Source: Bacillales bacterium
Lineage (GTDB): Bacteria > Bacillota > Bacilli > Bacillales > JAVBJX01
NCBI GenBank assembly: GCA_031546705.1
Contig: JAVBJX010000005.1
Location: 20,992-84,991 of the forward strand
Reading direction: 5' to 3'
DNA: 64,000 nt
Positions 3,245 through 50,821 of the stretch are shown here, piece by piece. Positions within the stretch are counted from its first letter, which is position 1, and every line of letters begins with the position of its first letter. A program made the translations under genes and the position numbers. Under the pieces are notes generated by a model. That model was given only the letters and a program-made list of their open reading frames with translations, made no database searches and had not been told where the DNA came from.

Positions 3245-6200
3245 ATGAGTTTTTTTACAAGATTTAGTTTGAAAAATGCCGTAGCTGTGCTTATTATTTC
3301 GGCATTATTAATTGCTGGGGGAGTGTATTCCTTTTCTAAATTGAAAGTGGATTTATTTCCAAATATTGAGTTTCCGATTGTATCAGTCGAATTTATTTAT
3401 CCAGGGGCTTCACCAACAGATATTGATACGGAAGTTATTTCTAAAGTAGAAAGTCAGTTAAAAGGTATTGAAGGCGTGAAGAGTATGACTTCTTCCATCG
3501 CTGAAAATGTTGGTTTTATTAACTTAGAATTTCCTTTTGATACCGATTTGGACAAGGTGGAAAGACAAGTAGATACGATTATTAAAGAAGCAAAAATTCC
3601 AGACAATGCCGAGTCAGCAGTTAATCGTTTTTCATTTAGTATGATGCCAATTTACAATATTTCTTTATTTGCTAAAGGAGATACGAATTTACAAGCATTC
3701 TTAAATGATACGGTTATTCCAGAACTAAAAAAAGTTAATGGTGTAAACTCTGTATCCGTTGGTGGAAAGAAAGCAGAACTACTAGAAATCACCGTTGATA
3801 AAGACAAATTAGGGCAAGCGGGACTCAGTCTTTCACAAGTGAAAGAGCAAATTAACGAGAAATTTTTATCGTTCCCAGTTGGAGCAATGACAAGTAATTC
3901 AATGAAAATTCCTGTACGGGTGCAAGAAAAAATTGAAACGATTGATAAACTAAAAAATCTGCCACTATCATCACCAATTCCAAATGCAAAACCAGTGAAA
4001 TTAAGTGATGTAGCAATAATTGAAACAATCACAAAACAAACAGATTTAACTCGTTACAATCTCAAAGAATCTTTATCTATGGCAATTACAAAGAAACAAG
4101 ATGCCAATACAGTAGAAATATCTGAAAAAGTTATTGAAGTATTAGACAAATATAGTGACAAAATGAGTTACGCAATCGGGCTTGATTCAGCAAAGGAAAT
4201 TAAATCATCTGTTGATACATTAATGCGTGAAGGGTTACTAGGAGCATTATTTGCTTCACTTGCCGTACTCATCTTTTTACGAAACTTTAGAGCAACAATT
4301 ATTGCTATCATTTCGATTCCAATGTCTTTACTTATCTCAACGATTTTCTTACATCAATTAGATATTTCATTAAATATGATGACTCTTGGTGGGATGGCAG
4401 TTGCTGTTGGTCGAGTGGTCGATGACTCGATTGTTGTTATTGAAAATATTTTTAGACGGATTCGTAAATCAAAAGATGGTTTAAATAATGAGCTTATTCT
4501 CGATTCAACAAAAGAAATTTTACAAGCGATTACGTCATCAACGATTACAACTGTTGTCGTATTTTTACCACTCGGACTTGTTGGTGGACTTACAGGAAAA
4601 TTCTTTATGCCATTTGCTTTAACAATTGTTTTCTCCCTACTTGCTTCCTTACTTGTAGCGATTACGATTGTGCCAATTTTGGCTAGATTTTCATTCACTA
4701 AAGTGCCACCCGATGAAAAAGAAGGCACACTACAACTCACGTATGCCAAAGCAATTACGTGGTCATTACGTCATAAAGCAATCGTTTTAGTTTCATCTAT
4801 TGCCTTACTTGTTGGCTCATTCGCCATTGTTCCATCACTAGGATTTACGTTCATTCCGAATGAGGAACTAAAAACATTTACAGCAAGTATTCAATTACCA
4901 GCAGCAACAACGCTAGAAAAAACAAATGAAACTTCCTTAAAAGTAGAACAAATGCTAGATAAAGAGCCAGAAATTGCTGAAGTAACTGCAAGTATTGGCG
5001 GACGTGATCCAGCTACTTATGTTCCAAGTGAAAGTCAATCTAACTACTTTATTAATGTAAAAGAGGGAACAAAACTTACCGAATATCTTGCTACTCTTGG
5101 AAAGAAAATAGAAGACATCGCAGGAAATGGTGCAAAAGTTTCCTTGCAAGAACTACAAAATGGACCACCATCAAACAGTAATGTCACAATTGATTTGTAT
5201 TCTACCGATTTAGATGCACTACAAAAATCAGCAAAAGAAGTAGAAGAGTATCTACAAAAACGTGATGATTTGAAATATGTAACAAATAATTTCTCTGAGA
5301 AACAAAAACAACTTATTGTTAATATTGACCCAGAAAAAGCAGCTAAATACGGTGTATCAGGTTTCCAAATTCTAGGAACAATTGCTGACCAAACAAAAGC
5401 GGTTGATATGGGCATCTTAAAACTTGATGGAAAAGAAAGAACGGTTCAACTAGCTTATAATAAAGATGTAACATCGAAAAAACAACTAGAAGACACAATG
5501 ATTTTCACCAAGCTCGGACCAGTTAAAGTAACTGAAATGGCAACCATTGAAGAAGCAAATATCTTTACATCGATTCAAAAAAATGATGGAAAAGTATTTG
5601 CCCAAGTCACAGGTCAAGTGATTGGAAATGATGTGCAAGCAACCACAACGAAAGTCATTGAAGCTGTGAAAAATGATATTAAGCTACCAAGCAACGTTTC
5701 ATTTGAAGGTGGTGGCGGTAGTGACGAAACAATGGAGATGTTCCAGCAATTAGCAATGGCAATGGCAATTGCAGTTGGACTTGTCTACATCACAATGCTT
5801 GTAGCATTTGGTAAAGCAAGAATTCCATTTATTATTCTTTCATCACTAATCTTCGTGCCAATTGGCTCATTGCTTGGATTGTTCCTAGCAGGTGAACCAA
5901 TGTCAGTCAGTGTGATGATTGGACTCTTAATGCTAATAGGAATTGTAACAACCAATGCAATTGTATTAGTTGATAGAATCGGACAAAATCGTGAGAAAAA
6001 AGGAATGAAAATTCATGATGCACTTGTGGAAGCAGGGAAAACTCGTTTGCGTCCGATTTTAATGACGGCATTTGCAACGATTGCTGCACTCATTCCGCTT
6101 GCTTTAAGTTCATCATCTGGAACTTTAATTTCTAAAGGGCTGGCAATTACTGTTATTGGCGGATTAACTTCTTCCACATTATTAACACTGATTATTATTC

Positions 6201-6256
6201 CAGTTGTGTATGAGTTATTTTTCTTTCGTCAAGTGAAGAAAGAGAGATTAAAATAG
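3245..6256 (+). CDS. RND-family efflux transporter (AcrB/SwrC-like), 12-TM type
   Basis: 1003-aa ORF with good SD. Typical RND N-terminus (FTRFSLKNAVAVLIISALLIAGGVYS..L.VDLFPNIEFP) and two hydrophobic blocks separated by large soluble loops. Confidence 0.85.
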   Translation: MSFFTRFSLKNAVAVLIISALLIAGGVYSFSKLKVDLFPNIEFPIVSVEFIYPGASPTDIDTEVISKVESQLKGIEGVKSMTSSIAENVGFINLEFPFDTDLDKVERQVDTIIKEAKIPDNAESAVNRFSFSMMPIYNISLFAKGDTNLQAFLNDTVIPELKKVNGVNSVSVGGKKAELLEITVDKDKLGQAGLSLSQVKEQINEKFLSFPVGAMTSNSMKIPVRVQEKIETIDKLKNLPLSSPIPNAKPVKLSDVAIIETITKQTDLTRYNLKESLSMAITKKQDANTVEISEKVIEVLDKYSDKMSYAIGLDSAKEIKSSVDTLMREGLLGALFASLAVLIFLRNFRATIIAIISIPMSLLISTIFLHQLDISLNMMTLGGMAVAVGRVVDDSIVVIENIFRRIRKSKDGLNNELILDSTKEILQAITSSTITTVVVFLPLGLVGGLTGKFFMPFALTIVFSLLASLLVAITIVPILARFSFTKVPPDEKEGTLQLTYAKAITWSLRHKAIVLVSSIALLVGSFAIVPSLGFTFIPNEELKTFTASIQLPAATTLEKTNETSLKVEQMLDKEPEIAEVTASIGGRDPATYVPSESQSNYFINVKEGTKLTEYLATLGKKIEDIAGNGAKVSLQELQNGPPSNSNVTIDLYSTDLDALQKSAKEVEEYLQKRDDLKYVTNNFSEKQKQLIVNIDPEKAAKYGVSGFQILGTIADQTKAVDMGILKLDGKERTVQLAYNKDVTSKKQLEDTMIFTKLGPVKVTEMATIEEANIFTSIQKNDGKVFAQVTGQVIGNDVQATTTKVIEAVKNDIKLPSNVSFEGGGGSDETMEMFQQLAMAMAIAVGLVYITMLVAFGKARIPFIILSSLIFVPIGSLLGLFLAGEPMSVSVMIGLLMLIGIVTTNAIVLVDRIGQNREKKGMKIHDALVEAGKTRLRPILMTAFATIAALIPLALSSSSGTLISKGLAITVIGGLTSSTLLTLIIIPVVYELFFFRQVKKERLK

Positions 6257-6265
6257 TATCTAAGA

Positions 6266-6301
6266 AATCGTTTGCCTATAAAAAGGTGAACGATTTTTTT
6301 G
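6266..6301 (+). terminator. Putative intrinsic terminator after the RND gene
   Basis: AATCGTT..AACGATT 7-bp stem with a 16-nt loop, followed by a T-run. Confidence 0.45.
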
Positions 6302-6402
6302 TGGAAAAATTTGAGGATATTTTGTTGATATTATTTTTCTTTATGATATTATTTAGTTAAATACTTAATTAACTAATCATTGAATTGAAAGAGGTGATTT
6401 AT

Positions 6403-6663
6403 TTGAATGAAACATTTAAAGCATTATCTGATCCGACACGAAGAAAAATTCTTGAACTATTAAAAGAAAGTGATTTAACAGCTGGAGAAATTCATGAACA
6501 TTTTGATATGTCTAAGCCAAGTATTTCGCAACACTTAAAAATTCTTAAAAACGCTAGACTTGTTCATGACATCAAAAAGGGGCAGTTTGTGTGTTATTCC
6601 ATTAACACAACTGTACTTCAAGATTTAATTGGCTGGGCATATTCTGTTTCTAAATCAGAATAA
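6403..6663 (+). CDS. ArsR/SdpR-family winged-helix transcriptional repressor
   Basis: FKALSDPTRRKILELL..GEI...F.MSKPSISQHLKIL motif. I prefer the TTG at 6403 (6 nt after GAGGTG) over the track start at 6385. Confidence 0.8.
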   Translation: MNETFKALSDPTRRKILELLKESDLTAGEIHEHFDMSKPSISQHLKILKNARLVHDIKKGQFVCYSINTTVLQDLIGWAYSVSKSE

Positions 6664-6696
6664 AAAGAATCTAATACCTAAAAAGGAGAAATTAAG

Positions 6697-7335
6697 ATGA
6701 AAAAACATATTTTACCATTACTAATGATTATTACTTCATTCATTATGTGGGCATTTTTCTATAACAAATTACCTGCCGAGTTGCCAACTCATTGGAATGC
6801 AAGCGGTGAAGCGGATGGGTTTTCTTCCAAACTTACAACTTTTTTTATGTCTAATGGCATGATGGTTTTGATGTATGTTATGTTTCTGATTCTACCAAAA
6901 ATTGATCCGAAAAAGATAAATTACAAGTATTTTTCTAAAGGATATTCAAGCATTGTCATTGGGATTATGATTTTGTTTTTTGCGATTAATCTTGGAACTA
7001 TCTACATTGGTTTGGGGCATGAATTGAAAATGGAGCGTTTGATTGTTATTTTAATCGGTGTGTTATTTTTATTTGTTGGAAATTATATGCAACAAGTGAA
7101 ATCGAATTATTTTATGGGGATTCGTACACCATGGACATTAAGTAACGAAACCGTTTGGAACAAGACACATCGAGTAGGTTCAAAAGTATTTATGATTGCG
7201 GGGATTTTGATAATGGTGACAGTTTTCTTACCACCAAGCATGATGATATGGGCGATTATTACAATTGCTTTTCTTATGTCAGCTATACCAATTGTTTATT
7301 CTTATGTTTTGTATAAGAAAATTACTACAGAGTAG
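6697..7335 (+). CDS. SdpI/YhfL-family membrane (immunity-type) protein with DUF1648-like N-terminus
   Basis: 212 aa, multi-TM. LP..LPTHWNASGEADGF N-terminal motif and NY.MGIRTPWTL..E.VW..THR motif typical of the SdpI family. Directly follows an SdpR-like gene. Confidence 0.75.
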   Translation: MKKHILPLLMIITSFIMWAFFYNKLPAELPTHWNASGEADGFSSKLTTFFMSNGMMVLMYVMFLILPKIDPKKINYKYFSKGYSSIVIGIMILFFAINLGTIYIGLGHELKMERLIVILIGVLFLFVGNYMQQVKSNYFMGIRTPWTLSNETVWNKTHRVGSKVFMIAGILIMVTVFLPPSMMIWAIITIAFLMSAIPIVYSYVLYKKITTE

Positions 7336-7364
7336 ATCCTTCTTTCAGTGAAATAAAAAAAAAA

Positions 7365-7408
7365 GCAGTTATTTCTAGGCGTAGTGCTTAGAAGGTAACT
7401 GCTTTTTT
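7365..7408 (+). terminator. Intrinsic terminator after the sdpI-like gene
   Basis: Long imperfect stem GCAGTTATTTCTAGG..CTTAGAAGGTAACTGC followed by TTTTTT. Confidence 0.7.
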
Positions 7409-7523
7409 ATTTATAAATCAAATTATTTGTTTTTTTGCGAAATAACAACGTGAATACAACTTAATTCTGCTATAATTCATATAACGAAATATATAAACCA
7501 TTCGTTGAAATGGGGCGTTTCAT

Positions 7524-8243
7524 ATGACAAAAATTGCTTTGTGTGATGATAATCAACAATTTATGAAAAATATATCAGAACTAATCCATGATTGTATGAA
7601 GCAAGAAAAAATTAAAGTGAAATTATATTTATTTAACAGCGGAACAAACTTAATAAATGCCTATAAACAAACTGGAAATCTATTTGATATTGTACTTTTG
7701 GATATTGATATGCCAGATATGAATGGAATGGAAACAGCAAAATATATTCGTCAGTATGATGACCAGTGTATGTTAATATTTCTTACGTCTATGGACGATC
7801 AAGTGTATAAAGTATTTGAATTTAATACATTTCGCTTTATACGGAAAAAGTATTATGAAAAAGAACTACATGCTGCACTTTTGGATGCAATTAAATGTTT
7901 GGAAGAGAAAGAGATTAAGTATGAATTCAAAACAAAAGACGAAGTTGTCAAACTATCTACGAACGAAATATTGTATTTTGAGATGGTCAATAGAAATGTG
8001 GAAATGCATACTTTGCATCGGCCATATACACTTACAATGTCTATTTTCAAAGAAATATCGGATAAGTTTTCCGATAAAGGTTTTGTTAGTGTCTATAAAG
8101 GTGCTTTAGTAAATTTGAGATATATAAAAAGTGTAAAAAAGATGCAGATTGAGTTGGATAATGGGGAAGTTTTGGGTGTATCAAGACAAAGAATGGCGGA
8201 TGTGAAGAGAGCTTTTTTTGAGTTTGAAAGAGGTGAGTTTTGA
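7524..8243 (+). CDS. agrA: LytTR-family response regulator (AgrA-like)
   Basis: N-terminal receiver (IALCDDN..VLLDIDMPDMNG..IFLTS) and a C-terminal LytTR-type domain (..ILYFE...R.V..HT......SI.E....L....F...YKGALVNL..I). Confidence 0.8.
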   Translation: MTKIALCDDNQQFMKNISELIHDCMKQEKIKVKLYLFNSGTNLINAYKQTGNLFDIVLLDIDMPDMNGMETAKYIRQYDDQCMLIFLTSMDDQVYKVFEFNTFRFIRKKYYEKELHAALLDAIKCLEEKEIKYEFKTKDEVVKLSTNEILYFEMVNRNVEMHTLHRPYTLTMSIFKEISDKFSDKGFVSVYKGALVNLRYIKSVKKMQIELDNGEVLGVSRQRMADVKRAFFEFERGEF

Positions 8244-9547
8244 TGACTTTATTTTATCTTTCTTTTGAATATATTTTTGGTTTGCTAGAGTTTTTACTGT
8301 TGTATATGTTTTTCAGTTCTATTTTTCAAAAATATGACAGGCTAAAATCGTACTGGTATTTTCTAGTAATTTTTGGGATGTCAATTACTGTATTTTTAAT
8401 GTCTTCTATTCAGTTGTATTCGGTATATAAAAGTATAATAAGTACGATTTTAATGATTCTCTATTCCTTTTTATTTGATACTACTATAAAAAACCGCTTC
8501 TTTTATAGCTTTATGTTTATTGCAGTGCAAGTATTGTGCGAATTAACGATTATCCAATCCACCATATATTTTCTTGGAAACACAAGTGATAAATTAATTA
8601 TGAATATGACGATGGATCGAATAGTATTGACGTTTATTATTAAAACAGTCATGTTTATTTTGTTGAAATTAATTAGTGAATCAGTCACAAGAACAAATGA
8701 AATGTTACCAAAAAAATATTGGTTTCTTGTATTTGGATTATTTATTATTACAACAATTAATATGTTAGTTGTATTTGATATGAGTTTAAAAATCAAAGAA
8801 GAATCCCAAACTTCGCTATATCTAGTATTTATGTGTGCAAGTTTACTGATGATTGATATAGTGGTATACACCATGTTTGTTAAACTAAACACCTATTATT
8901 ACAATCAACAAATAGCGAATATGACAGCCATGCAATACAAGGCTACAGAGCAACATTTCATAGCAATAAAATTGTACAATGATGAAATGAGAAAAATCCA
9001 CCATGATTTCAATAATCATATCCAGTGTATGACAATTCTTATTCAAAATCAAAAAAATGAGGATTTGATAGATTATATTTTTGCACTGAAAGAGGGGTAT
9101 GAAAGAATACCAACTATTATAAGAACAGGAAATGAAATTGTGGATGCTGTGTTAAATCAAAAGAAAGTACAAGCTGAACAGAACCACATTGATTTTCAAG
9201 TGAAGGCGGTAGTTTCACCTGACATGAAGATAAACTCTACTGATTTAAGTGCATTATTATTTAATAGTTTAGATAATGCCATAGAAGCTAATCTAAAGAT
9301 TGCTAACAAAGATCAAAGAATGATAAAAATAAATATCGCTCCAAAAAAAGGCTATCTATATATTGATGTGACAAACTCTATGGTTACTTCAAAAAATTTT
9401 ACATTCCAAACAAGTAAATCGGATAAAAAAACTCATGGTTTAGGTTTAAAAATCATGAAAAACATTACAAAAAAATATAATGGCGACATTCATCATAAGA
9501 TAGAAGATGATGTTGTTATCCTGTCCATAGCTATTGAAATACTTTAA
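8243..9547 (+). CDS. agrC: Multi-TM GHKL sensor histidine kinase, HPK10/AgrC-like
   Basis: TGATG overlap with the regulator gene. Six or seven N-terminal TM helices. H-box KIHHDFNNH typical of AgrC-type kinases. C-terminal N-box and G-box (NSLDNAIEA ... KKTHGLGLKI). Confidence 0.8.
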   Translation: MTLFYLSFEYIFGLLEFLLLYMFFSSIFQKYDRLKSYWYFLVIFGMSITVFLMSSIQLYSVYKSIISTILMILYSFLFDTTIKNRFFYSFMFIAVQVLCELTIIQSTIYFLGNTSDKLIMNMTMDRIVLTFIIKTVMFILLKLISESVTRTNEMLPKKYWFLVFGLFIITTINMLVVFDMSLKIKEESQTSLYLVFMCASLLMIDIVVYTMFVKLNTYYYNQQIANMTAMQYKATEQHFIAIKLYNDEMRKIHHDFNNHIQCMTILIQNQKNEDLIDYIFALKEGYERIPTIIRTGNEIVDAVLNQKKVQAEQNHIDFQVKAVVSPDMKINSTDLSALLFNSLDNAIEANLKIANKDQRMIKINIAPKKGYLYIDVTNSMVTSKNFTFQTSKSDKKTHGLGLKIMKNITKKYNGDIHHKIEDDVVILSIAIEIL

Positions 9548-9560
9548 ATTTACCAATTTG

Positions 9561-9611
9561 ACAAAAAAACATACCAGTTCCACAAAAATCGACATAATAA
9601 ACAAATAATAT
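9561..9611 (+). promoter_or_regulatory. Candidate LytTR (AgrA-type) direct repeats overlapping the -35 position of a putative agrBD promoter
   Basis: ACAAAAA at 9561-9567 and again at 9582-9588, a 21-bp period. TAATAT -10 candidate at 9606-9611, 17 nt after the second repeat. Confidence 0.3.
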
Positions 9612-9646
9612 GTTACGCTTTCAACAAGTAAACGAGGTGTTTGAAA

Positions 9647-10240
9647 ATGCTAAGAAAACTTGCAGGAAGTGTAACTTTTTTATTGAAGAAAAATAGAATT
9701 ATAGAAAAAGAAGATTCTGAGATTTATTCTTATGGACTAGAGCTATTGATTTCTAATGGAATTACATTGTTAGCTATTGTAAGTACAGGAGCAATACTAA
9801 ATAAATTGGATTTAACATTTATCTTCCTACTAGTATTTTGTGGATTAAGGATTTTTACAGGTGGTTACCATGCAAAAAGTTTTTGGGGATGTTTTCTGAT
9901 TTCAAATATAACCTATCTAGTTATCATGATAGGTAGCTTATTAGTAGCTTCTTTAATACAAGGAGAATTAGGGCTTTTATTTACATTTGTTTCTTTATTA
10001 GTAATATATAATTTCGCTCCAGTAGAACATCAAAATAAACTGAAATCAGATTCTGATATTTTAAAAAATAGAGCATTTAGTAGACACATATCCATATATG
10101 TTTTAGGAATTTGTTTGCTGATGTACACATTAGGAGGAGTTTTTGAAAAATATGTATTTGTGATTGGCTGTTCGTTATTGGCTGTTGCCATTAACATAGT
10201 AGTTAGTTTGAACAATAAAGGAGGTGAGAAAAATGAGTGA
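9647..10240 (+). CDS. agrB: AgrB-family membrane endopeptidase (autoinducer-peptide maturation)
   Basis: Multi-TM protein with a GGYHAKSFWGC motif; the His and Cys are 7 residues apart, as for the AgrB catalytic pair. ATG at 9647 is preferred (7 nt after GAGGTG) over the TTG at 9641. Confidence 0.85.
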   Translation: MLRKLAGSVTFLLKKNRIIEKEDSEIYSYGLELLISNGITLLAIVSTGAILNKLDLTFIFLLVFCGLRIFTGGYHAKSFWGCFLISNITYLVIMIGSLLVASLIQGELGLLFTFVSLLVIYNFAPVEHQNKLKSDSDILKNRAFSRHISIYVLGICLLMYTLGGVFEKYVFVIGCSLLAVAINIVVSLNNKGGEKNE

Positions 10241-10394
10241 GTTAAAGAGAAGTATTTTAAAGTTAGTTGCAAAATCAGCAAAGAAGACAGCTTTATTTTC
10301 ACCGCATACCATGTCTTCGTACTTTACTTACGAACCGAAAATGCCAGAACAGTTAAGGGGAAAGTTGGAAATTAAAGAAGTAGGTGAAGAGTAG
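10233..10394 (+). CDS. agrD: AgrD-like autoinducing-peptide precursor (53 aa; not in the ORF track)
   Basis: ATG overlaps the agrB stop by 8 nt, with GGAGGTGAG upstream. Sequence: MSELKRSILKLVAKSAKKTALFSPHTMSSYFTYEPKMPEQLRGKLEIKEVGEE. It has an amphipathic basic N-helix, a short Ser-containing core and a conserved acidic YEPKxP..L recognition tail. Confidence 0.75.
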   Translation: MSELKRSILKLVAKSAKKTALFSPHTMSSYFTYEPKMPEQLRGKLEIKEVGEE

Positions 10395-10563
10395 TTTAAT
10401 ACGGTAGCTAGGAAGGATATGTTTAACATATCTCAATTACAATGAACACACGAATACAAATAAGAATTGGCTTTGAAAGACCTGACTAATTCAGGAGATA
10501 TCTTGATTCTTTTTTGTAGAATGTGAATGAAAATTATCATAATAAACTTAGGAGGTCACAATC

Positions 10564-10911
10564 ATGAAATTCGTAAAACGTTTAGTCGGTTCAGTTGTTT
10601 TATGTTCATCACTTTTTACTTTTGCTGGTAGTTTGTCTGCAAGTGCAAGTGGGATGGAAATACAGCCAAGGGTTGAAGCATGTCCAGTCTACGGTGCTCA
10701 TCAATATAATGGTCAGTCATCACTTTACCAAGACGGTACTAGGACAGCAATCAATTCAGTCTATAGGGGGACTGGATCAGATGGAGCTCCTGTATTTGAA
10801 AATTGCACAGAAACATTTGGAATCATGAAATATAAAAAAATCTGTGCTTGTGGTGATTACAAAGTAACTTATTCACATGACCAAATGCTAAAACATTCAA
10901 TTAAGCATTAA
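10564..10911 (+). CDS. Small secreted protein of unknown function (4 Cys in the mature part)
   Basis: Strong SD (AGGAGG). Sec signal peptide with an ASA-type cleavage site (..SLSASASG). No family recognised. Confidence 0.7.
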   Translation: MKFVKRLVGSVVLCSSLFTFAGSLSASASGMEIQPRVEACPVYGAHQYNGQSSLYQDGTRTAINSVYRGTGSDGAPVFENCTETFGIMKYKKICACGDYKVTYSHDQMLKHSIKH

Positions 10912-10925
10912 TAATTTTATTTAAC

Positions 10926-10965
10926 AGAAGTATTTCACAGGGTAAAATTATTGTGAAATACTTCT
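10926..10965 (+). terminator. Intrinsic terminator
   Basis: Perfect 14-bp stem AGAAGTATTTCACA..TGTGAAATACTTCT directly after the stop codon. Confidence 0.75.
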
Positions 10966-11251
10966 AATGTTATTTTATTAAGTATACAATGAAAGATTTT
11001 CAGAAAAATAATCAAAAAAATATAGACTCTACCCCAAAATCAATTCTTGACGAAATAGTATAAGGAAAAGTAATAAAAAAACATTTGAGTAGCTGTTACA
11101 TACAAACAAAGGATTATTTTTGGCATGTAACTGAAAAACATATGAGCTAATTTATGGCAAGAACAGATTTTAGGAAATACCCAAAATATATATACGAATA
11201 ATTTATTGAAATATTAGATATACACTAAAAAATACAAGGAGAACGAATACT

Positions 11252-13009
11252 ATGTCTAAAAGATTCCACAAAATTTTATCCATCCTTGCTTTATTTACAT
11301 TTACCATTTTAACTGGCTGTGAAATAACATTGTCATCTCTAAAAAATGAGCACTCAATTTCATCTATCCAAGAAACAATTGATTATTTATCTTCAGAAAA
11401 ACTAGAAGGACGTTTAGTTGGAACTAACGGAAATGAGGATGCAGGCAATTATTTGGCGGAGCAGTTCAAAAGTTTAAATCTTCTTCCGTATAGTGGAGAT
11501 AGTTTTCTAGTTCCATATAAGCAAGAAATATATGATACAGGTGAGCAGTCTTTACAATTAACAAAGAATAACCAAGTCACCACTTTTCAACATGAAAAAG
11601 ATTTTTTTGAAACCCATATTGGAAATGCGAATGTTATAGGAGAAGTGACAGTTGATAAGAAGCAACCAACAAAAAATAAAATCATTGCTATTGAAAATTT
11701 TAATGAGCTATCAAAAGATAGAAATCAAACAAAGCTTATATTTGTAAAGAGGAATCCTTTTATGAAAGTACCACGAATGACGCAAAGTAACACAACACCT
11801 ATGGTGCAAGTAAGTGAGGAGGTTTTTAAGCAATTAACAGAACCAAATGTGATAGTTACATATAAAAGTAACTGGTTGAAAAAAACAATCACAGCTAATA
11901 ATGTTATAGGAAAACTTTCAAATGGACATGACCATCCGCATGAGGAAGCCATTGTTATATCGGCTCACTTTGATGGTATTGGAAAAATAAATAATCAAAC
12001 AGTTAAAGGTACACTTGACAATGCAAGTGGCGTTGCTACATTATTAGATATTGTTCCAGAGTTATCAAAACTGGGAACTGACTATCATCGAGATATTATC
12101 ATTGTAGCTTTCAATGGAGAAGAATCAGGATTAAAAGGAAGTAAAGATTTTGTTGAGAACTTAAAATCTACATATAATCGTATAATGAATGTGAATATTG
12201 ATTGTGTGGGAACAAGTTATAAGGTGTCTGTTTTAGGAGAAGCAGAAAGTGAGTACACAAAGTTTACTTTAGATTATTTTAATCATCTTGTGAAACCAGA
12301 TTTTTATATGGAAATAGGTGACATGGTGAGCGATCACCAATCATTTTTAGATGCTGGATATGAAGGGATTACTTTTGGGACAGTACCAAATGAATACAAA
12401 CAGATTCACACGGTTAATGATAATCAACCAATTAATGTAAATATAGTGGAGAAACTAAGTGAAACCATTTCAAAATTTGTACAAAAATTAGAAGAAGCCG
12501 AATTTCCATCCCCACATGCTATAAAAAGTACAGCATTTGAAGATTGTTCTCAAATTAACAAACTAGTACAGAACATAAATGGATATATCTTAAAAACTTG
12601 TGAAGGAACAATCGCAGAGAATACACAAGGGAAAAAAGTACAAAATCTTTTTCTGGATTATGTAAAAGAAAAATTAGCCCTTTCACTTGATATTTGGAGA
12701 AATGAAGTGCCAAGTGTGGTAAATTCCAATGAGAAAAAATATGAGCCAATTCAACAAGGAGATTGGACATTTTATTTTCCGAAATTTCACCCTCATGTGG
12801 TATCATTCAAAAAGGGAAATGATGTTTTTTGGATATCTATTATGAATGGAAAAATCATGAAATTTAATAGTAATGGTAGTATTGCTTCAATTGCAGACGC
12901 TCTTTCACTTAAAAATACTGAACAGTTTATGAAGTGGTGGACAGATGAGAAGTTGGAAGAAAATGTGTCAAAGATTATTGAATCTATGAATAACCCATCG
13001 GTTAAGTAA
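11252..13009 (+). CDS. M28-family metallopeptidase lipoprotein with a C-terminal extension
   Basis: Lipobox LTGC. M28 motifs NVIGKL, ISAHFDG, DNASGVATLL, AFNGEESGLKGS and SDHQSF. About 170 extra C-terminal residues of unknown function. Confidence 0.8.
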   Translation: MSKRFHKILSILALFTFTILTGCEITLSSLKNEHSISSIQETIDYLSSEKLEGRLVGTNGNEDAGNYLAEQFKSLNLLPYSGDSFLVPYKQEIYDTGEQSLQLTKNNQVTTFQHEKDFFETHIGNANVIGEVTVDKKQPTKNKIIAIENFNELSKDRNQTKLIFVKRNPFMKVPRMTQSNTTPMVQVSEEVFKQLTEPNVIVTYKSNWLKKTITANNVIGKLSNGHDHPHEEAIVISAHFDGIGKINNQTVKGTLDNASGVATLLDIVPELSKLGTDYHRDIIIVAFNGEESGLKGSKDFVENLKSTYNRIMNVNIDCVGTSYKVSVLGEAESEYTKFTLDYFNHLVKPDFYMEIGDMVSDHQSFLDAGYEGITFGTVPNEYKQIHTVNDNQPINVNIVEKLSETISKFVQKLEEAEFPSPHAIKSTAFEDCSQINKLVQNINGYILKTCEGTIAENTQGKKVQNLFLDYVKEKLALSLDIWRNEVPSVVNSNEKKYEPIQQGDWTFYFPKFHPHVVSFKKGNDVFWISIMNGKIMKFNSNGSIASIADALSLKNTEQFMKWWTDEKLEENVSKIIESMNNPSVK

Positions 13010-13047
13010 CATAACGTGAGTTCAGCGAAATAAAAGGTGGAAAAATA

Positions 13048-13108
13048 AAAATCTATCCCAAATCTGTTAAAATAAGGTCACCGAAGCCAAACAGAAGGGA
13101 TAGATTTT
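13048..13108 (+). terminator. Hairpin with T-tract after the peptidase gene
   Basis: AAAATCTATCCC..GGGATAGATTTT 12-bp stem with a large loop. Confidence 0.4.
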
Positions 13109-13109
13109 T

Positions 13110-13184
13110 ATGCAAGAATTCTTACTACCTATTTTCTGTGATGTAGATGACTTTTATTTTACTGTCCTATTAGTTATACAATAA
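13110..13184 (+). mobile_element. Relic of an IS982-type transposase N-terminus (24 codons then a stop)
   Basis: MQEFLLPIFCDVDDFYFTVLLVIQ*. The IFCxVDDF motif is, from memory, the conserved N-terminal motif of IS982-family transposases. No DDE domain follows. Confidence 0.35.
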
Positions 13185-13224
13185 GGTGATGATTGCGACT
13201 CATATCCAATCATCACCTTATTGT
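13178..13224. repeat. Perfect 17-bp inverted repeat (not a canonical terminator)
   Basis: ACAATAAGGTGATGATT-N13-AATCATCACCTTATTGT. No U-tract follows it on either strand. Adjacent to the IS relic. Confidence 0.6.
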
Positions 13225-13258
13225 AAAAAATATTATATATGATTGGAGTGTATGACAA

Positions 13259-14244
13259 ATGAAGAAATACATCTTTCTTTTGTTTCTTCTTTTTTTGGTA
13301 GGATGTAACAAACAGGAAAATACACAGATTCTTTTACTGGAAAGTAACCTAGATCAAGTCAATTCCACATCGTATTTAAAAATACTGAACAGTAATTTGA
13401 ACTCTGTCAAAGATATACCTATTTCTGCTAATGGCTTAGAGAAATTGTATGTTGATAATGATAATATACATATTTTCGGAAAATACAATTCAAAAGCAAT
13501 TCAAATACACGAAGAAAAGGTATCAATTAAATCATCAGAATACCCACACCCACTAATTGAAAATTTTCTTGGTACAGGGAATATGATAGTATATAATTAT
13601 TATCAAAATAATTAAAATTACTATACTTATCAATTTATTTATAATAACAAACAGAAAAAGACACTTCGAGTAAAGGGAATACCTTATCATTGTCAAAGTA
13701 ATGGAAAGAATATTTATGTATATGTGAGGGATATGCAAAAACCTACAAGTCAACAATTTTCTGTAATAGAAATTAACTTCAATGAAGCAAAAATCCAAAG
13801 AACCCTTCCAATGGATGGAGAGTATATGATTGCTGACATGAAGTTTTATAATGACCATATGTATTTGCTAGTGAATGGGTTTGATAGTATTGAAGGAGAT
13901 GCGAAATTATTTATTTATAGATTACAGGATTTACAAAAAAAACAGTTGATTTTCTTGGTCAATATAACTCCAATATTTTTATCGAAAGCGGGTATATATA
14001 TATTCTTCAACTTGCGGGTGTAGATGAATCACATCTACTGAAATACAATAACAAACTAGAAACGGTCTTAAAAATGTATAAATTAGAGGGTAAAGTAAAT
14101 AAAGCTGTTTTACAGGAAGATGAATTAATCTTTGTTAGTACAAAAGATAGTAAAAAGAAATTGATTGTCTTGAATTTAAAGAACAGTAAAACTCAAGAAA
14201 CTTCTGTTCCTGATTTCACGCAAGATTTTGTTATTTGGAAGTAA
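13259..14244 (+). pseudogene. Decayed lipoprotein gene (one in-frame stop plus one frameshift)
   Basis: Lipobox LVGC. The reading frame continues through TAA at 13613-13615 in the same frame as ORF 13724..14023. It then shifts by one frame around the A8 run (13934-13941) and continues to the stop at 14242-14244 (..IESGYIYILQLAGVDESHLLKYNNKLETVLK...VIWK*). Confidence 0.65.
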
Positions 14245-14336
14245 ATATTCATGTAAATTTTCAAAATCAGTAAATTAATTTGTGATTATCTTGCTGTTTT
14301 AATTAAAATATGATGTAAGGGGATTAAAAAATAGTT

Positions 14337-14609
14337 ATGACTATATGTAAATATGGTTCTCTTATTTTATCTTTTACCTTTTTCTTTTGGTGGGTACATG
14401 AATTTTTACATGTTGGCCCTCCTTTTTCTTACAGTTTAGCCCCATACAGTATGTATGCATTGTACATTTCTATCTTATTATTTGGTATTTTTTTATACTG
14501 TACAAACAAATTTTCTTTAAAGAAAATTATACTCATACTTTTAATTATTGTTCTTGTGATTATTTTGTTCTTGCTATCTCTTGTTATAAGTGCTTTGATG
14601 GGTTCTTGA
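14337..14609 (+). CDS. Small hydrophobic membrane protein, unknown function
   Basis: 90-aa ORF with three hydrophobic stretches. Weak SD. Confidence 0.4.
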   Translation: MTICKYGSLILSFTFFFWWVHEFLHVGPPFSYSLAPYSMYALYISILLFGIFLYCTNKFSLKKIILILLIIVLVIILFLLSLVISALMGS

Positions 14610-15022
14610 TACTTGTCATTGTAATATTTTCAGTAAACTACAGAATTAGAATGAAATATTTATAAGTAAAAAATGTATAAATATTGATAAGTCAATTGGG
14701 TATCTTGAGAGTAAGTTATTACTTGAAGGATGCCCATTTTCAGAAGGTACAACCTTTGATTTTTACAATATATATATGGAGTCGATAAATCTATTAAAGA
14801 TCCCTATTGCCTTAAAAAAATATATACACAAAGAGATAGAATAATCCACAATAAAGAGAAGAATATAGGGAAAATCCTACTTGAAAACAAAATGGTAGAT
14901 ACAAAAAATCCGTATTTACTATCTGAAGAATTCTATACATATTTGTGATTTCATCCTCTTATTATTGAAATATGCTAATTGTTGTATATAATAAAGTTAT
15001 ACATACATAAGGGGTGATTGAT

Positions 15023-35419: not shown

Positions 35420-37804
35420 GTGCTAAAAATCAAAAATACAATAAGACGTAAAATACTTGTGTCTGTAATGATTCCATCACTTATTTTTACTTTAATAACT
35501 TCTATCTATATATTTCAAAAGATTTATAGTAACAAGGTAGATCAAGGTGCTATGGAAATAGAGAATATTATAGAGATTAACTCAGCTAAAATAGTAAGTA
35601 AGTTAGAAGCTATTAATCATATTATACTAATCACATCAAAATTAATAGGAGATTTGGATGCTACCTCAGTAGATGCTCGGCAACAAAGTAACAACGCTTT
35701 AAAATCTATGTTAGTAGATGAAAATATTTACAATGCGTGGATGGTTTTTGAGCCAAACGCATTTGATGGAAAGGATTTTAAACACACCAAAGACTATCCT
35801 GGTGCGTCTTCTGGACGTTTCTTAATGTCTTATATCGTGGTTGATGGTAAAATTGTTGTCTCTCAAAACCTCGATGAATCTACCCTTAACAATCCACAAC
35901 TAAGTGATTGGTATATTCATCCTAGAGATACTGGTAAGTCTATAGGTTATATTGAAAGAAAAAAGTTGAACAGTCACAATGATAAATTAAATGAAGCACC
36001 TATCAATACATTATCCTTGGTCAGTCCCATTTTTCGTCATGGAAAAGTAATTGGTTGCATAGGCGTAGATGTTACCTTTATGTTGCCCAATCATGTAGAT
36101 TCTAGGTTTGGTTATAACAATGCTTCTGTAAGCATGTTTTATCCTGATGGACGTGTGTTTTATTCACCAGACATGACATATACAAATGACAATGTTAGTA
36201 CCTTATTTAGTCATACTGATAAAATTAAAGAAGCTATGCATAAAGGTGAGCCTATATTTTTACACAATGAACACAACGGATTTTTAAACACAGATGCATT
36301 TACGTACTTTAAACCTATCAAAATAGACCTATTCAAAAAAAGCCTATATTTGCATGTTGCTATTCCTGAAACGGAGATTTTAGGAGATACCTTTAAAATG
36401 TTTGGTGTACTGGCAATATGTTTTATTGCTTTACTTTTCCTTTTTCTTTTATTACTTGCCTATGTGGTTGGTCAAATCACCAAACCCATCAATTCTATCG
36501 CTTTAGCTACTGATGCTATTTCATTGGGGCTTTTAGAAACCGAGATACCTGTTTCAACAAAAGCAATCCATGAAATTGATTCCCTATCTCGCACACTACG
36601 CAAAATAGTAGAACAGTTCCAAGTTTATCAAATCATGCAGGAAAAATACCAATTAAACCAGTTTTTAGACGCATCATTAATGGAAGTAATAAAGAATTCC
36701 AAAAACATAAATGTAACATTTGCAGGAATATGTTCCACCTTACAACTATTTTATTGGAACAAAGTTAGAATAGTAGTGCTAGTTGATAATCGACCTATCT
36801 TCACAGATAGTTTGAGTGATTTTTATTATCACTATTTGCTTGCACCCTTGGTACAGAATAGGAAGTTAACTTTTTTCAATTCGTTTTCTTTAGCACAACA
36901 CAAACTTACATTCTTTGAAAAAGATGTAGTATCTATCTGTGTCGTAACTCTTGAAAAAAATGAAACATTTATCGGATACATCATATTAGAAAATACCAAT
37001 ATAACACAATCACTTTCTATTACTGATGAAACTGCCTTGCTTCATGTACAACAAGTCTTAGCATATTGGCTTTTAGATATAGATATCTCACAAATTTCTC
37101 TTGGGCTTGAGAAGGTTTATAATGATGAAATTTCATTAGACATATATCAAGGAGTATTATCACCAAAAAGTATAGAACCAGAAATTTTATATGAAGATCC
37201 ATTACTAAACGTAGCACAAAAAATAGAGGGGCTAGATATAGCAGATGCTATCAGTGCTGTTGGTGGGATGCAAGAAATCGTTAGCAAATCGCTAAAACTT
37301 ACAGCCAGATTGTTGCCTGATTTTATACACACTGTTTCTGAATTGCTAGCTTTGGAAGATTTTAAAAATTTCGCAATACAGATTCACGGTATGAAAGGTT
37401 CATTAAAAAATATACGTGCTAATAAATTAAGTAAATTAGCGAATGACCTTGAACGAGCTGCATATGAAAGTAATTTTGATTATTGTAAGCAACAATTTCC
37501 GACCTTTCTTACTGCTGTTTCAGCTTTTAGTGATGAGTTAAATGCAATTATGATTGAAGATGATGTAGTTAAAAAAGCAGGCGATCAGCAATTACTTATA
37601 TCGGTTCTTGAAAATGCACAAAGTGCAGCCGATGATTTTGAAAGTACGGTTGCCCTTGCATACATGAGTTCTATTTCTGCGTATACTTTCGGTAAAACAG
37701 AAGATATATTAATAGAAAAGATTTGTAACGCATTAGAAGAATTTGATTGCGATATGGCAATCACTCACATTTTATCTTTAAAGGAGCTTTTACCATGGAT
37801 ATAA
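35420..37804 (+). CDS. Membrane sensor with a Cache-like extracytoplasmic domain, HAMP-like linker, GAF-like domain and C-terminal HPt domain (no kinase domain)
   Basis: TM1 (ILVSVMIPSLIFTLITSIYIF), ~300-aa periplasmic-type region, TM2 (FGVLAICFIALLFLFLLLLAYVV). HPt helix AIQIHGMKGSLKNIRANKLSKLANDLE near the C-terminus. The start (GTG at 35420) is uncertain. Confidence 0.65.
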   Translation: MLKIKNTIRRKILVSVMIPSLIFTLITSIYIFQKIYSNKVDQGAMEIENIIEINSAKIVSKLEAINHIILITSKLIGDLDATSVDARQQSNNALKSMLVDENIYNAWMVFEPNAFDGKDFKHTKDYPGASSGRFLMSYIVVDGKIVVSQNLDESTLNNPQLSDWYIHPRDTGKSIGYIERKKLNSHNDKLNEAPINTLSLVSPIFRHGKVIGCIGVDVTFMLPNHVDSRFGYNNASVSMFYPDGRVFYSPDMTYTNDNVSTLFSHTDKIKEAMHKGEPIFLHNEHNGFLNTDAFTYFKPIKIDLFKKSLYLHVAIPETEILGDTFKMFGVLAICFIALLFLFLLLLAYVVGQITKPINSIALATDAISLGLLETEIPVSTKAIHEIDSLSRTLRKIVEQFQVYQIMQEKYQLNQFLDASLMEVIKNSKNINVTFAGICSTLQLFYWNKVRIVVLVDNRPIFTDSLSDFYYHYLLAPLVQNRKLTFFNSFSLAQHKLTFFEKDVVSICVVTLEKNETFIGYIILENTNITQSLSITDETALLHVQQVLAYWLLDIDISQISLGLEKVYNDEISLDIYQGVLSPKSIEPEILYEDPLLNVAQKIEGLDIADAISAVGGMQEIVSKSLKLTARLLPDFIHTVSELLALEDFKNFAIQIHGMKGSLKNIRANKLSKLANDLERAAYESNFDYCKQQFPTFLTAVSAFSDELNAIMIEDDVVKKAGDQQLLISVLENAQSAADDFESTVALAYMSSISAYTFGKTEDILIEKICNALEEFDCDMAITHILSLKELLPWI

Positions 37805-38811
37805 AAGACATAGGAATACAACAACTTAACAAGATACCGGGTGTTTTACTTCCTTCCGACCTTTCAGTAATCAAATTTGAGGAAGTATCAAAAAACATGG
37901 AGCAGTTAATCGATCTTATGCCAATATTTTCTTCTAATTTACAAGAAGCTTTTATAGCCAATAATGAATCAAATTTTATGCAAAGTATAAAAGAAGGCAT
38001 TTCTCTGCTCTCAGCTGTATATGCTAGAAAATTAATCATTGATTTAGAAAAAATAATAAGTTACTTCAAAACTGGAGACAGAGAGGTCTGCGAAATATTT
38101 TTAGAGAAATTTATTTCAGAATTATTTACTTTGTCAATTGATATGCAAAAAGTTATGCATACCTCTATAGATTCAAAAGAAGCAATACTAAAAACTTCTA
38201 ATCAACTATTTAAATTTACAGCGATTCTCTCAGATTTGTCAGCAGTGAAATATTTAATAGACAATGTTGAGTTTGGACGAGCATTTGAAATGCTAAATGA
38301 TATACATGCTGTTGCATTCTTAACGCAGACATCTATGGCAAAACTTCATTTAAAAACCTATCGTCAAGAAGAAGCACTAGAATCAATACAAAGTTTAATA
38401 GATGAATTTACGCAAAAAATTGTGGAGACTAAAATAAGCAAATCTGACAGTAAGAAAAAAATATTGGCAGTTGATGATAGACCAGAAATTTTAATGGTAT
38501 TGTCTGAAGTTCTTAAAGATGATTATCACGTACTTTGTGTACCTTCAAGCGAGACTGCTCTTAAGGTCTTGGACAAACACGAGATTAGCTTATTTATATT
38601 AGATATAGGAATGCCAAATATGAATGGGATAGAACTTGCGAAACGTATTAAGTCTACATCAAAGTTTAAAGAAGTTCCGATTGTTTTTCTAACGGGTAAC
38701 GCCACAAGAGATTATTTACATCAAGCAATCCATGCAGGTGCAGCAGATTTCATTGTTAAACCTATCGTACAAGAAAATATTATTTATAGAGTGCAACAAT
38801 TATTAAATTAA
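37795..38811 (+). CDS. Response-regulator receiver protein with an N-terminal helical (HPt-like, His-less) domain and no output domain
   Basis: ATG 8 nt after AAGGAG; overlaps the upstream gene by 10 nt. Complete receiver: AVDDRPE, FILDIGMPNMNG, FLTG, VKP. Confidence 0.75.
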   Translation: MDIKDIGIQQLNKIPGVLLPSDLSVIKFEEVSKNMEQLIDLMPIFSSNLQEAFIANNESNFMQSIKEGISLLSAVYARKLIIDLEKIISYFKTGDREVCEIFLEKFISELFTLSIDMQKVMHTSIDSKEAILKTSNQLFKFTAILSDLSAVKYLIDNVEFGRAFEMLNDIHAVAFLTQTSMAKLHLKTYRQEEALESIQSLIDEFTQKIVETKISKSDSKKKILAVDDRPEILMVLSEVLKDDYHVLCVPSSETALKVLDKHEISLFILDIGMPNMNGIELAKRIKSTSKFKEVPIVFLTGNATRDYLHQAIHAGAADFIVKPIVQENIIYRVQQLLN

Positions 38812-38825
38812 TGTGGCGGTGACCT

Positions 38826-39818
38826 ATGAAACATTTGTTTGTAATAAATCCCTTGGCTGGAAATGTAAAAGGTCAGCAAAAAGAGATTATTAACATGATA
38901 GATAGTTTTTTTGAGAACTATAAAAACATAGAGTACCACATACACGTTACACGATGGAGTCGTGACACTGTAGGGTTTGTACGTAGATTTTTACTCAATG
39001 AAAAAGAAATAGTGAGGATATACGCCGTTGGTGGGAGTGGAACACTTTTTGAAACCATAAACGGTTCAATTGGTATGCCAAATGTTCAAATTGCCTGCTA
39101 TCCGCTTGGCTATACCAATTCATTTATTAGGTATTTTGGTGATGACAAGAAGCATTTGTTTTTATCTCTTAGAAATCTAGTTTTTTCTGAAACCATACCA
39201 ATAGATGTGATTCGTTGTGGTAGACACTATGCAGTTTCTTTTTCTGCCATCGGCTTAGAGTCTGGAAGTACCCGTGATATACATATGATCAATAAAAACA
39301 AGCAAAACGCTAAGGGCTATTTATTTAGGGAACTGTTATCCTTAAAAAAATTTGTTTCTAACCATCAACAGTACACAATCACGCCTATTGGTGGGGGCGA
39401 TTCATCAGAATTAAATGAAGTTTTTGTTTCTGGTTACATGCTCATGCCTAGTAATAAGAAAGCTACTGATCTTACAGCACTTGTCGTAGCTAATGCTCCC
39501 TACTATAGTAAATCGTTTGCTACAATGCATGCACATCCAAACGATGCTATGATAGATATCTATATGACAAAAAAAAGGCATGCTTGGAAAATAGTATCAA
39601 CTAACTTAACTGGCAGTCACCAGAAATTATCTGATCATCTATCCCATTTTAGTGGAACAAGTTTAAAAGTTGTATCTGATACGGTTATGTGTATTTCTAT
39701 AGATGGTGAACTGTTTTTCGAAACTTCGATAGACTATCAAATTATACCTTACGCTATTGATTTTGTGTGTCCAAGAGGCATTGATATTGCCAGTATATAT
39801 GAATCAATAAATGATTAG
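38826..39818 (+). CDS. Divergent diacylglycerol/lipid kinase catalytic-domain protein (YegS/BmrU/DgkB family)
   Basis: [12 protein letters not shown] start. GGSGT in place of [13 protein letters not shown] in place of PxGTGNDF, and a C-terminal ISIDGE motif. Confidence 0.6.
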
Positions 39819-39828
39819 GAGGGCTTGT

Positions 39829-50586: not shown

Positions 50587-50649
50587 TTGTATTCCTCCTC
50601 TTTATTGTATGTAACATGGTTATTTTAACAGATAGTGTATGGAAAGAGC

Positions 50650-50740
50650 AAAAATGAGAGTGGGAAAATAGAGGCAAAAAACACCTCTATTTTCCCACTC
50701 TTGTGTTTAGGTTTGGTTGCCAAAATCCTGAAAAATTAAT
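50650..50740 (+). repeat. Copy C of the hairpin-plus-box repeat
   Basis: Perfect 18-bp stem AGAGTGGGAAAATAGAGG-N9-CCTCTATTTTCCCACTCT (50657-50701), then GGTTGCCAAAATCCTGAAAAATTAAT (50715-50740). Confidence 0.65.
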
Positions 50741-50821
50741 GTTTTAATGAAATAATCCTAAATACTAAAAACCCTTGAAAAAGACTTCTTTCTCACACTC
50801 AAAATAAATTTTCTCGAATAA

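Follow-up and report, generated by a model that had tools for sequence, protein, structure and literature searches.

A cysteine-free AgrD-type precursor in a complete agr module of a Bacillales bacterium carries a predicted serine-based autoinducer ring

Results and discussion

The 53-codon open reading frame (ORF) at 10233-10394 is an AgrD-type gene

The forward strand of a 64,000-nucleotide (nt) stretch of a Bacillales genome (contig JAVBJX010000005.1 of assembly GCA_031546705.1, positions 20,992 to 84,991; hereafter the window) harbors a complete agr-type quorum-sensing module that ends in a small ORF at 10233-10394, here called agrD. Our analysis confirms this ORF as a genuine AgrD-type gene with serine in place of the cysteine that would form the ring, and we consider it probable that it is a functional gene for the precursor of a cyclic autoinducing peptide (AIP) in an agr-type quorum-sensing circuit. 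The gene content of the locus, the family membership of the peptide, the conservation of Ser28 and its flanks, the catalytic motif of AgrB and a conserved operator are all directly observed.

The ORF extends from ATG to TAG and encodes MSELKRSILKLVAKSAKKTALFSPHTMSSYFTYEPKMPEQLRGKLEIKEVGEE, a peptide of 53 residues with no cysteine among them. The Shine-Dalgarno sequence GGAGGTGAG (10220-10228, read from the sequence) ends 4 nt 5' of the ATG, and the TGA stop codon of agrB (10238-10240) lies inside the start region of agrD, giving an overlap of 8 nt between the two genes. An earlier note on this DNA had described exactly such an unlisted, Cys-free ORF with its ribosome-binding site and overlap, and the sequence reads as it said. 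An alternative in-frame GTG at 10224 would yield a 56-residue version; since this codon falls within the Shine-Dalgarno sequence and the homologues begin at the position of the ATG, 10233 is likely the start of agrD. The lesson for annotation is that a length cut-off in an ORF listing can hide the key gene of a quorum-sensing locus.

Assignment to the AgrD family comes from a profile match and from homologues. The NCBIfam model TIGR04223 (quorum_AgrD; AgrD family cyclic lactone autoinducer peptide) matches the peptide with 31.8 bits and an E-value of 1.2e-7 at a curated cut-off of 19 bits, and the alignment pairs residues 7-42 with positions 2-37 of the 38 in the profile. The peptide also has the size and context of the family, being a small precursor (~40-60 residues) adjoining agrB. 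This match, obtained by the family-profile check that the earlier note had suggested, and the agrB, kinase and regulator neighbors together bear out its designation of the peptide as AgrD-like. Homologous loci, moreover, keep the agrD ORF itself and not a different small ORF. The precursor can be laid out as a leader (residues 1-22), the conserved segment SPHTM (23-27), a core (28-32) and a charged tail (33-53). Over leader residues 1-18 the helical hydrophobic moment is 0.54, a value attained by 2% of shuffled sequences and weaker when the segment is shifted by 3-4 residues.

The mode of sequence variation is likewise that of a coding sequence. Across seven Tissierella-type copies of the 15-codon block SPxTMSVFYFYEPKM, 8 of the 14 conserved codons differ synonymously and in no other way, with the sole amino-acid change located at x. 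Because variation in the conserved codons of these copies is exclusively synonymous, it indicates purifying selection on the agrD frame.

A complete agr module surrounds agrD

The four genes of the module lie on one strand in the order LytTR regulator, AgrC-like kinase, AgrB and AgrD. The AgrA-like response regulator (7524-8243, +; 239 residues) matches Pfam Response_reg (E 8.2e-17) and LytTR (E 3.3e-15), and its stop codon is overlapped by 4 nt by the start of the AgrC-like sensor histidine kinase gene (8240-9547, +; 435 residues). The kinase matches Pfam HATPase_c_5 (GHKL; E 1.4e-18), has a weak NCBIfam AgrC match, and contains about seven hydrophobic segments within residues 1-214. The agrB gene (9647-10240, +) encodes a membrane peptidase/cyclase of 197 residues with six hydrophobic segments (Pfam AgrB, PF04647; E 1.8e-37); GAGGTG stands 7 nt 5' of its ATG at 9647, and a TTG at 9641 is also in frame. 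Residues G72, G73, H75 and C82 of AgrB are invariant in nine of nine aligned AgrBs, forming the motif GG.H......C with a His-to-Cys spacing of 7, the same as between the catalytic residues H77 and C84 in S. aureus AgrB. None of the four genes is disrupted, and catalytic and phospho-transfer motifs are in place. Neither AgrB nor the AgrD profile drew anything meaningful from a sequence search of the PDB.

Immediately 5' of agrB the kinase gene runs out in the same direction, and an Rfam scan of the window gave no RNA family match, hence none to a divergent RNAIII-type effector RNA. RNAIII is not a defining component outside staphylococci, as the fsr locus does without it (PMC12312760).

AgrD belongs to a small subfamily based on serine

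Eight relatives of the window AgrD were found, all of them small ORFs adjoining agr genes, and those that can be placed belong to Tissierella. An exhaustive phmmer search of 1.84 billion representatives produced only two at E < 1e-3; a genome scan and a profile search raised the number to eight, the profile search of a 5.8-billion protein set giving nine clusters including that of the window. The window peptide is a singleton in the 5.8-billion set, an exact look-up of the peptide in public assemblies returned no record, and scans of JGI metagenomes with the AgrD profile and with AgrB yielded no closer relatives. Aligned with its homologues, the window peptide is 35-46% identical, and local BLAST gives values of up to 52%. 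Two are proteins of Tissierella sp. Yu-01, WP_277719464 and WP_277719468, which NCBI names 'cyclic lactone autoinducer peptide', and further copies lie in Tissierella metagenome-assembled genomes (MAGs).

Every member of this set shares the frame SPxTM-S-xxxx-YEPK(M/I)(P/S), and none has cysteine in or before the core. Within the seven-sequence alignment A3, residues S23, P24, T26, M27, S28 and Y33-M37 are invariant; the 44-residue member P0015, which carries Ile at the M37 position, stands outside this alignment. The core itself departs from this uniformity: all Tissierella copies have SVFYF and the window has the unique core SSYFT, so that four of the five ring residues are exchanged between conserved processing flanks. 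The other module genes have homologues in the agr locus of Tissierella sp. Yu-01, at identities of 47% for the regulator, 35% for the kinase and 36% for AgrB, and the kinases are 26% identical in their sensor parts and 43.5% in their kinase parts. A diverged core between conserved flanks, paired with a sensor part more diverged than the kinase part, corresponds to the classic pattern of agr specificity divergence, in which a signal-receptor pair has diverged. Together, the window AgrD and the Tissierella copies make up a small, exclusively Ser-based AgrD subfamily with a recognizable operator.

As a separate observation, Tissierella genomes contain several agrD paralogues with the identical core SVFYF, which is unusual as AIP cores are normally hypervariable.

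Ser28 is the predicted ring nucleophile

To place the ring, the Ser subfamily was aligned by MAFFT with Cys-type AgrDs encoded beside the nearest AgrB relatives (Konateibacter PPCSGIF-HQPKRP and Lachnospiraceae A4 NQCCMWFL-GQDEIP) and with canonical AgrDs (S. aureus I and II, S. epidermidis I, Listeria, and L. plantarum LamD). S28 falls in the column of the ring cysteine, and P38 falls in the conserved proline column, ten residues on, in all sequences. Serine is invariant at position 28 in nine of nine subfamily members, which together with its place in the Cys column supports the earlier suggestion that a precursor devoid of cysteine uses serine as its ring nucleophile. The earlier note had left two candidate rings, S-S-Y-F-T and S-Y-F-T-Y. 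The former is favored and the latter disfavored because S28 is invariant while Val takes the place of S29 in each of the eight relatives. We accordingly predict, as the best choice, a ring S28-S-Y-F-T32 encoded at 10314-10328 (+; TCT TCG TAC TTT ACT), with S28 as predicted nucleophile, T32 as predicted acyl donor, and cleavage before Y33. The motif YEPKMP (10329-10346, +), whose first five residues (Y33, E34, P35, K36 and M37) belong to the invariant positions of alignment A3, would be the start of the C-terminal tail removed by AgrB. By analogy with characterized Ser-type signals, the linkage in the window peptide would be a lactone. Computed [M+H]+ values of the cyclic forms are 586.2508 for SSYFT, 717.2912 for MSSYFT and 818.3389 for TMSSYFT, and they rise to 955.3978, 1052.4506 and 1139.4826 with the exocyclic tails HTM, PHTM and SPHTM.

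A further point of reference for the cleavage site is Listeria AgrD, which presumably continues with a YEPKSP tail directly after CFMFV, the counterpart of a cut before YEPKMP in the window; a look-up in literature text did not find this tail. The Listeria AIP is CFMFV, and mass spectrometry puts its ring C-terminus at V (PMC4916163).

A conserved putative operator and a leader hairpin lie at the 5' end of agrB

Directly after the stop codon of the kinase gene begins a predicted LytTR operator (9551-9584, +), composed of the two 13-nt direct repeats TACCAATTTGACA and TACCAGTTCCACA at a start-to-start distance of 21 bp. AgrA/LytTR sites consist of 9-bp repeats with a 12-bp spacer, that is, a 21-bp period. 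The box pair TACCAGTTTNACA N8 TACCAGTTTNACA stands 5' of agrD or agrB in the Tissierella loci L086, L088 and L090, and the pattern derived from Tissierella has a single match in the 64-kb window, differing at 2 of 24 positions, while 100 shuffled sequences contained no match. This makes 9551-9584 the predicted autoinduction promoter site for agrB-agrD. A reporter driven by 9561-9611, as the earlier note had proposed, would cut the first box, since the operator spans 9551-9584. A scan for sigma-70 promoters found no more sites than in shuffles. When species genomes were scanned for the operator, two Flavobacterium matches appeared besides those in Tissierella (L101 7689-7722, in Flavobacterium sp. 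H122, and L099 3408-3441). The L101 match is a 21-nt tandem repeat, GACAAGCTCAGCTACCAGTTC, present in three copies inside an ORF, and was set aside as a chance resemblance unrelated to agr.

Downstream of the operator, RNA folding delineates a leader stem-loop (9612-9681, +) with arms at 9612-9622 and 9665-9675, an inner stem, and a run of six U at 9676-9681. Its folding energy is -23.4 kcal/mol (z -4.2), and none of 200 shuffles is as stable. Both in the window and at the Yu-01 agrB the hairpin encloses the Shine-Dalgarno sequence and start codon of agrB. The window hairpin holds two G-U pairs and would consequently work only as plus-strand RNA. The element recurs throughout the subfamily, as a stem-loop with a U-run lies about 25 nt after every box-pair promoter, with z from -3.6 to -6.4 in Tissierella (L086 3285-3372, 5816-5905 and 7645-7734; L088 5570-5659 and 8474-8563; L089 5907-5996; L090 755-849), and those Tissierella agrB genes that have no boxes have no hairpin either. 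The consensus comprises 18 pairs, 7 of them with compensatory changes, and has no Rfam match. The hairpin might act as an attenuator, as a 5' stabilizer, or as an insulator that stops transcripts running on from the kinase gene. To our knowledge, no attenuator or insulator layer of this kind has been described for agr systems.

A proposed circuit and its alternatives

From these features we infer a sequence of biochemical steps, including the lactone, the N-terminus of the signal and the regulon. A possibly amphipathic N-terminal leader would tether the 53-residue precursor to the membrane, where AgrB, through His75 and Cys82, would cut off the tail YEPKMPEQ...EE after Thr32 and keep the Thr32 carbonyl as an acyl-enzyme. 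Attack by the side-chain oxygen of Ser28 would then release the five-residue macrolactone S-S-Y-F-T, and some protease would trim the leader to leave an exocyclic N-terminal tail. The secreted peptide may be sensed by the polytopic AgrC-like kinase (8240-9547), which would phosphorylate the LytTR regulator (7524-8243). The regulator, in turn, would bind the repeats at 9551-9584 and activate agrB-agrD, and probably also the downstream gene for a secreted protein, thereby closing a positive feedback loop.

Several observations weigh against this proposal. A scan of the Pfam library with the AgrD peptide gave no family at E <= 1; because the Pfam AgrD model (PF05931) is built around staphylococcal sequences, this miss is no argument against membership in the broader AgrD family. 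The Ser28 codon of the window, TCT, is one substitution away from the Cys codon TGT; in favor of the proposal, the nucleophile codon of the relatives is TCA, more than one substitution away from any Cys codon. Threonine as the C-terminal ring residue is unusual and a point of doubt, as the last ring residue of characterized AIPs is F, M, L, V or W. No close relative of the window locus turned up against which conservation of the SSYFT core could be checked. Finally, no RNA runs covering agrB-agrD are listed, the sole RNA data set reaches only the last 24 nt of agrD, and translation of AgrD and its peptide product are predictions.

The alternatives differ mainly in the fate of the ring. If the leader were cut directly before Ser28, the free Ser28 amine would lie beside its own O-ester, so that the mature, tail-less signal could undergo an O-to-N acyl shift to the homodetic cyclo(SSYFT), of the same mass as the lactone, or the ester could be hydrolysed to a linear peptide. 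We regard this outcome as unlikely, albeit chemically reasonable, since Ser esters are well established to undergo O-to-N acyl migration at neutral pH. Among Clostridia, thiolactone AIPs that have no tail do rearrange to lactams by the analogous S-to-N shift (PMC8251862; PMC11953309), and the fate of tail-less Ser lactones has explicitly been left open (PMC8251862). The precursors of the Listeria and L. plantarum AIPs appear to resemble the window AgrD in the tail. These two AIPs are tail-less pentapeptides (PMC4916163). The conserved SPxTM before Ser28 could equally be an exocyclic tail, however, and such a tail would block the shift. A bolder version, to which we give similarly low credence, extends the rearrangement to the whole Ser-only subfamily: its product would be a homodetic cyclic pentapeptide, AgrB would act as a Cys-independent primer of head-to-tail cyclization, and the hairpin would add an attenuator or insulator, which ends read-through from the kinase gene or throttles the feedback loop. 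A different ring altogether, formed either by Ser29 as nucleophile with cleavage after Tyr33 (S-Y-F-T-Y) or by Thr26 as nucleophile of a seven-residue ring, seems very improbable. Ring sizes beyond five do exist, with six residues in C. acetobutylicum and nine in GBAP (PMC4916163), Thr26 is likewise invariant, and a Tyr-ended ring would restore the usual hydrophobic C-terminus; but the Val found at the Ser29 position in all eight relatives means that this residue is not the nucleophile of the subfamily, and S28, not T26 or S29, is the residue aligned with the ring cysteine, at the conserved distance of 10 from the proline.

Two further explanations question whether agrD is used at all. It may be a homologue out of use, a copy that has fallen silent or is decaying within an island gained by horizontal transfer, and that is untranslated or unprocessed. 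G+C content drops to 26-32% over 6-15 kb, between flanks of 34-38% on both sides, the relatives belong to another class of bacteria (Tissierella) with none close, and no RNA coverage of agrB or of most of agrD was found. Yet all four genes are intact with their catalytic and phospho-transfer motifs, the Shine-Dalgarno sequence, overlapping stop and start, and operator are preserved, and every family-invariant residue of the processing flanks is retained, which leaves disuse quite improbable. That the ORF arose by chance and has no coding function is a conceivable concern for a short ORF, given that AT-rich DNA gives many small ORFs; it is effectively refuted, and its probability close to nil, in view of the profile match above cut-off, the synteny with agrB, the eight homologues and the synonymous-only pattern.

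Comparison with known Ser-type and Cys-type systems

The closest systems are those of Tissierella sp. Yu-01 and the Tissierella MAGs, whose AgrDs are computationally annotated and uncharacterized. They share with the window the SPxTM-S-xxxx-YEPKM frame, the lack of a core cysteine, the box-pair operator and the leader hairpin. In contrast, their core is SVFYF and not SSYFT, and their host belongs to Tissierellia where that of the window belongs to Bacillaceae. The gene order also differs: Tissierella has agrD in first place and in several copies, a gene for a secreted protein next, and agrB further downstream, whereas the window has regulator-kinase-agrB-agrD with an overlapping stop and start.

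Ser-lactone AIPs are established in S. pseudintermedius, with a five-residue ring, and in E. faecalis, where GBAP has a nine-residue ring (PMC12312760, PMC3673130). The nonapeptide AIP of S. pseudintermedius/intermedius, in which Ser replaces Cys in a five-residue macrolactone made by AgrB, is an experimental precedent for the chemistry proposed here; it differs in its unrelated core and leader, in the RNAIII that accompanies its staphylococcal agrBDCA operon, and in an exocyclic tail of four residues. Replacing the Ser of the S. pseudintermedius signal by Cys lowered its activity (PMC3673130). GBAP (FsrD/FsrB) resembles the window peptide in being a Ser lactone from a system that has no RNAIII and only a LytTR regulator (PMC12312760), but its nine-residue ring within an 11-mer contrasts with the five residues predicted for the window. 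Reviews disagree on fsrD, which is placed within fsrB in another frame (PMC3673130) or in a locus fsrBDCA (PMC12312760); unlike fsrD, the window agrD is a separate gene that overlaps agrB by 8 nt. A tail-less AIP of Ser type has also been predicted for Hungateiclostridium (Clostridium) thermocellum (PMC8251862), which shares with the window the Ser nucleophile, a non-staphylococcal Firmicute host and the question of whether the lactone survives (PMC8251862); a sequence relationship is no part of this likeness. Among Cys-type systems, Listeria monocytogenes AgrD is similar in its five-residue ring, a precursor of ~53 residues and an agrB/D/C/A system, and differs in its Cys thiolactone and the operon order agrBDCA. 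By phmmer, the window AgrD has no detectable similarity to Listeria AgrD beyond the presumed Y-E-P-K-x-P tail motif.

The window AgrD appears to have no sequence relation to the characterized Ser-lactone peptides, its nearest relatives being uncharacterized but annotated. The claim that a Ser lactone would be rare among agr systems stands in part: serine is uncommon and the lactone prediction is supported, but precedents exist and the variant is already known. What is new is the unique core SSYFT and the unusual host. Our understanding of agr systems is unchanged in kind. Precedents exist for the chemistry, and an annotation pipeline would assign the gene its name. What the locus adds is a complete Ser-type agr module with a unique predicted signal, the SSYFT ring, and it offers a test bed for how AgrB handles Ser versus Cys and for the fate of Ser lactones without an exocyclic tail (PMC8251862). 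Its experimental value lies in the Ser-only subfamily, the question of lactone versus lactam, and the conserved leader element.

A gene for a putative secreted protein follows agrD

Downstream of agrD, at 10564-10911 (+), lies a possible co-transcribed output gene for a 115-residue protein with a signal peptide and five cysteines; it has no family assignment, with no significant match in Pfam or NCBIfam. A 508-nt contig from an invertebrate-gut metatranscriptome is identical to 10371-10878 and takes in the final 24 nt of agrD, the intergenic spacer and the greater part of this gene. The contig suggests that transcription runs through the end of agrD into the gene for the 115-residue protein, with carry-over of DNA as another possible source; expression of this gene is probable, and it may share a transcript with agrD. 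Between the two genes a terminator scanner found none, and only a weak AT-rich structure (z -1.6) is present. A comparable arrangement is seen in Tissierella, where a signal-peptide protein of 220-335 residues that belongs to no Pfam family is encoded after each agrD copy (L086 3420-4304 and 6001-7119; L088 5665-6836; L089 6001-7235; L090 858-1754). The downstream secreted proteins of the window and of Tissierella have no detectable similarity to one another.

Host and genomic surroundings

The host appears to be an unsampled or poorly sampled lineage of Bacillaceae, a relative of Bacillus that probably lives in an invertebrate gut. The segment 55349-62120 contains a DAHP-synthase/chorismate-mutase fusion, an AcuC-like deacetylase and an acetyl-CoA-synthetase-like gene, and the synthetase reaches no more than 81% identity with any of 185,579 species representatives, its best matches all being Bacillaceae (Domibacillus, Anoxybacillus, Neobacillus and others). 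Besides the agr module, the low-G+C stretch (6000-15000) holds an SdpI-like gene, an M28 peptidase and several small lipoprotein or membrane ORFs, and no mobility genes were noticed in it. Low G+C and relatives in Tissierella fit a possible horizontal acquisition. A search of a plasmid collection in DNA and protein modes returned only a 122-nt match to the LytTR gene in Clostridium butyricum and no sign of plasmid-borne origin.

Upstream of the module, a 19-nt inverted repeat (7353-7414) with 95% complementarity and a loop of 24 nt, set between runs of A and T, follows the SdpI-like gene and is likely a bidirectional terminator at the upstream edge of the agr transcription units. Elsewhere in the window, two tandem paralogous genes for M29 aminopeptidases of 371 and 372 residues occupy 49471-51940 on the reverse strand, and the forward strand at 35420-42246 encodes a 794-residue protein that belongs to no Pfam family, a receiver-domain protein, and an 811-residue hybrid histidine kinase/receiver.

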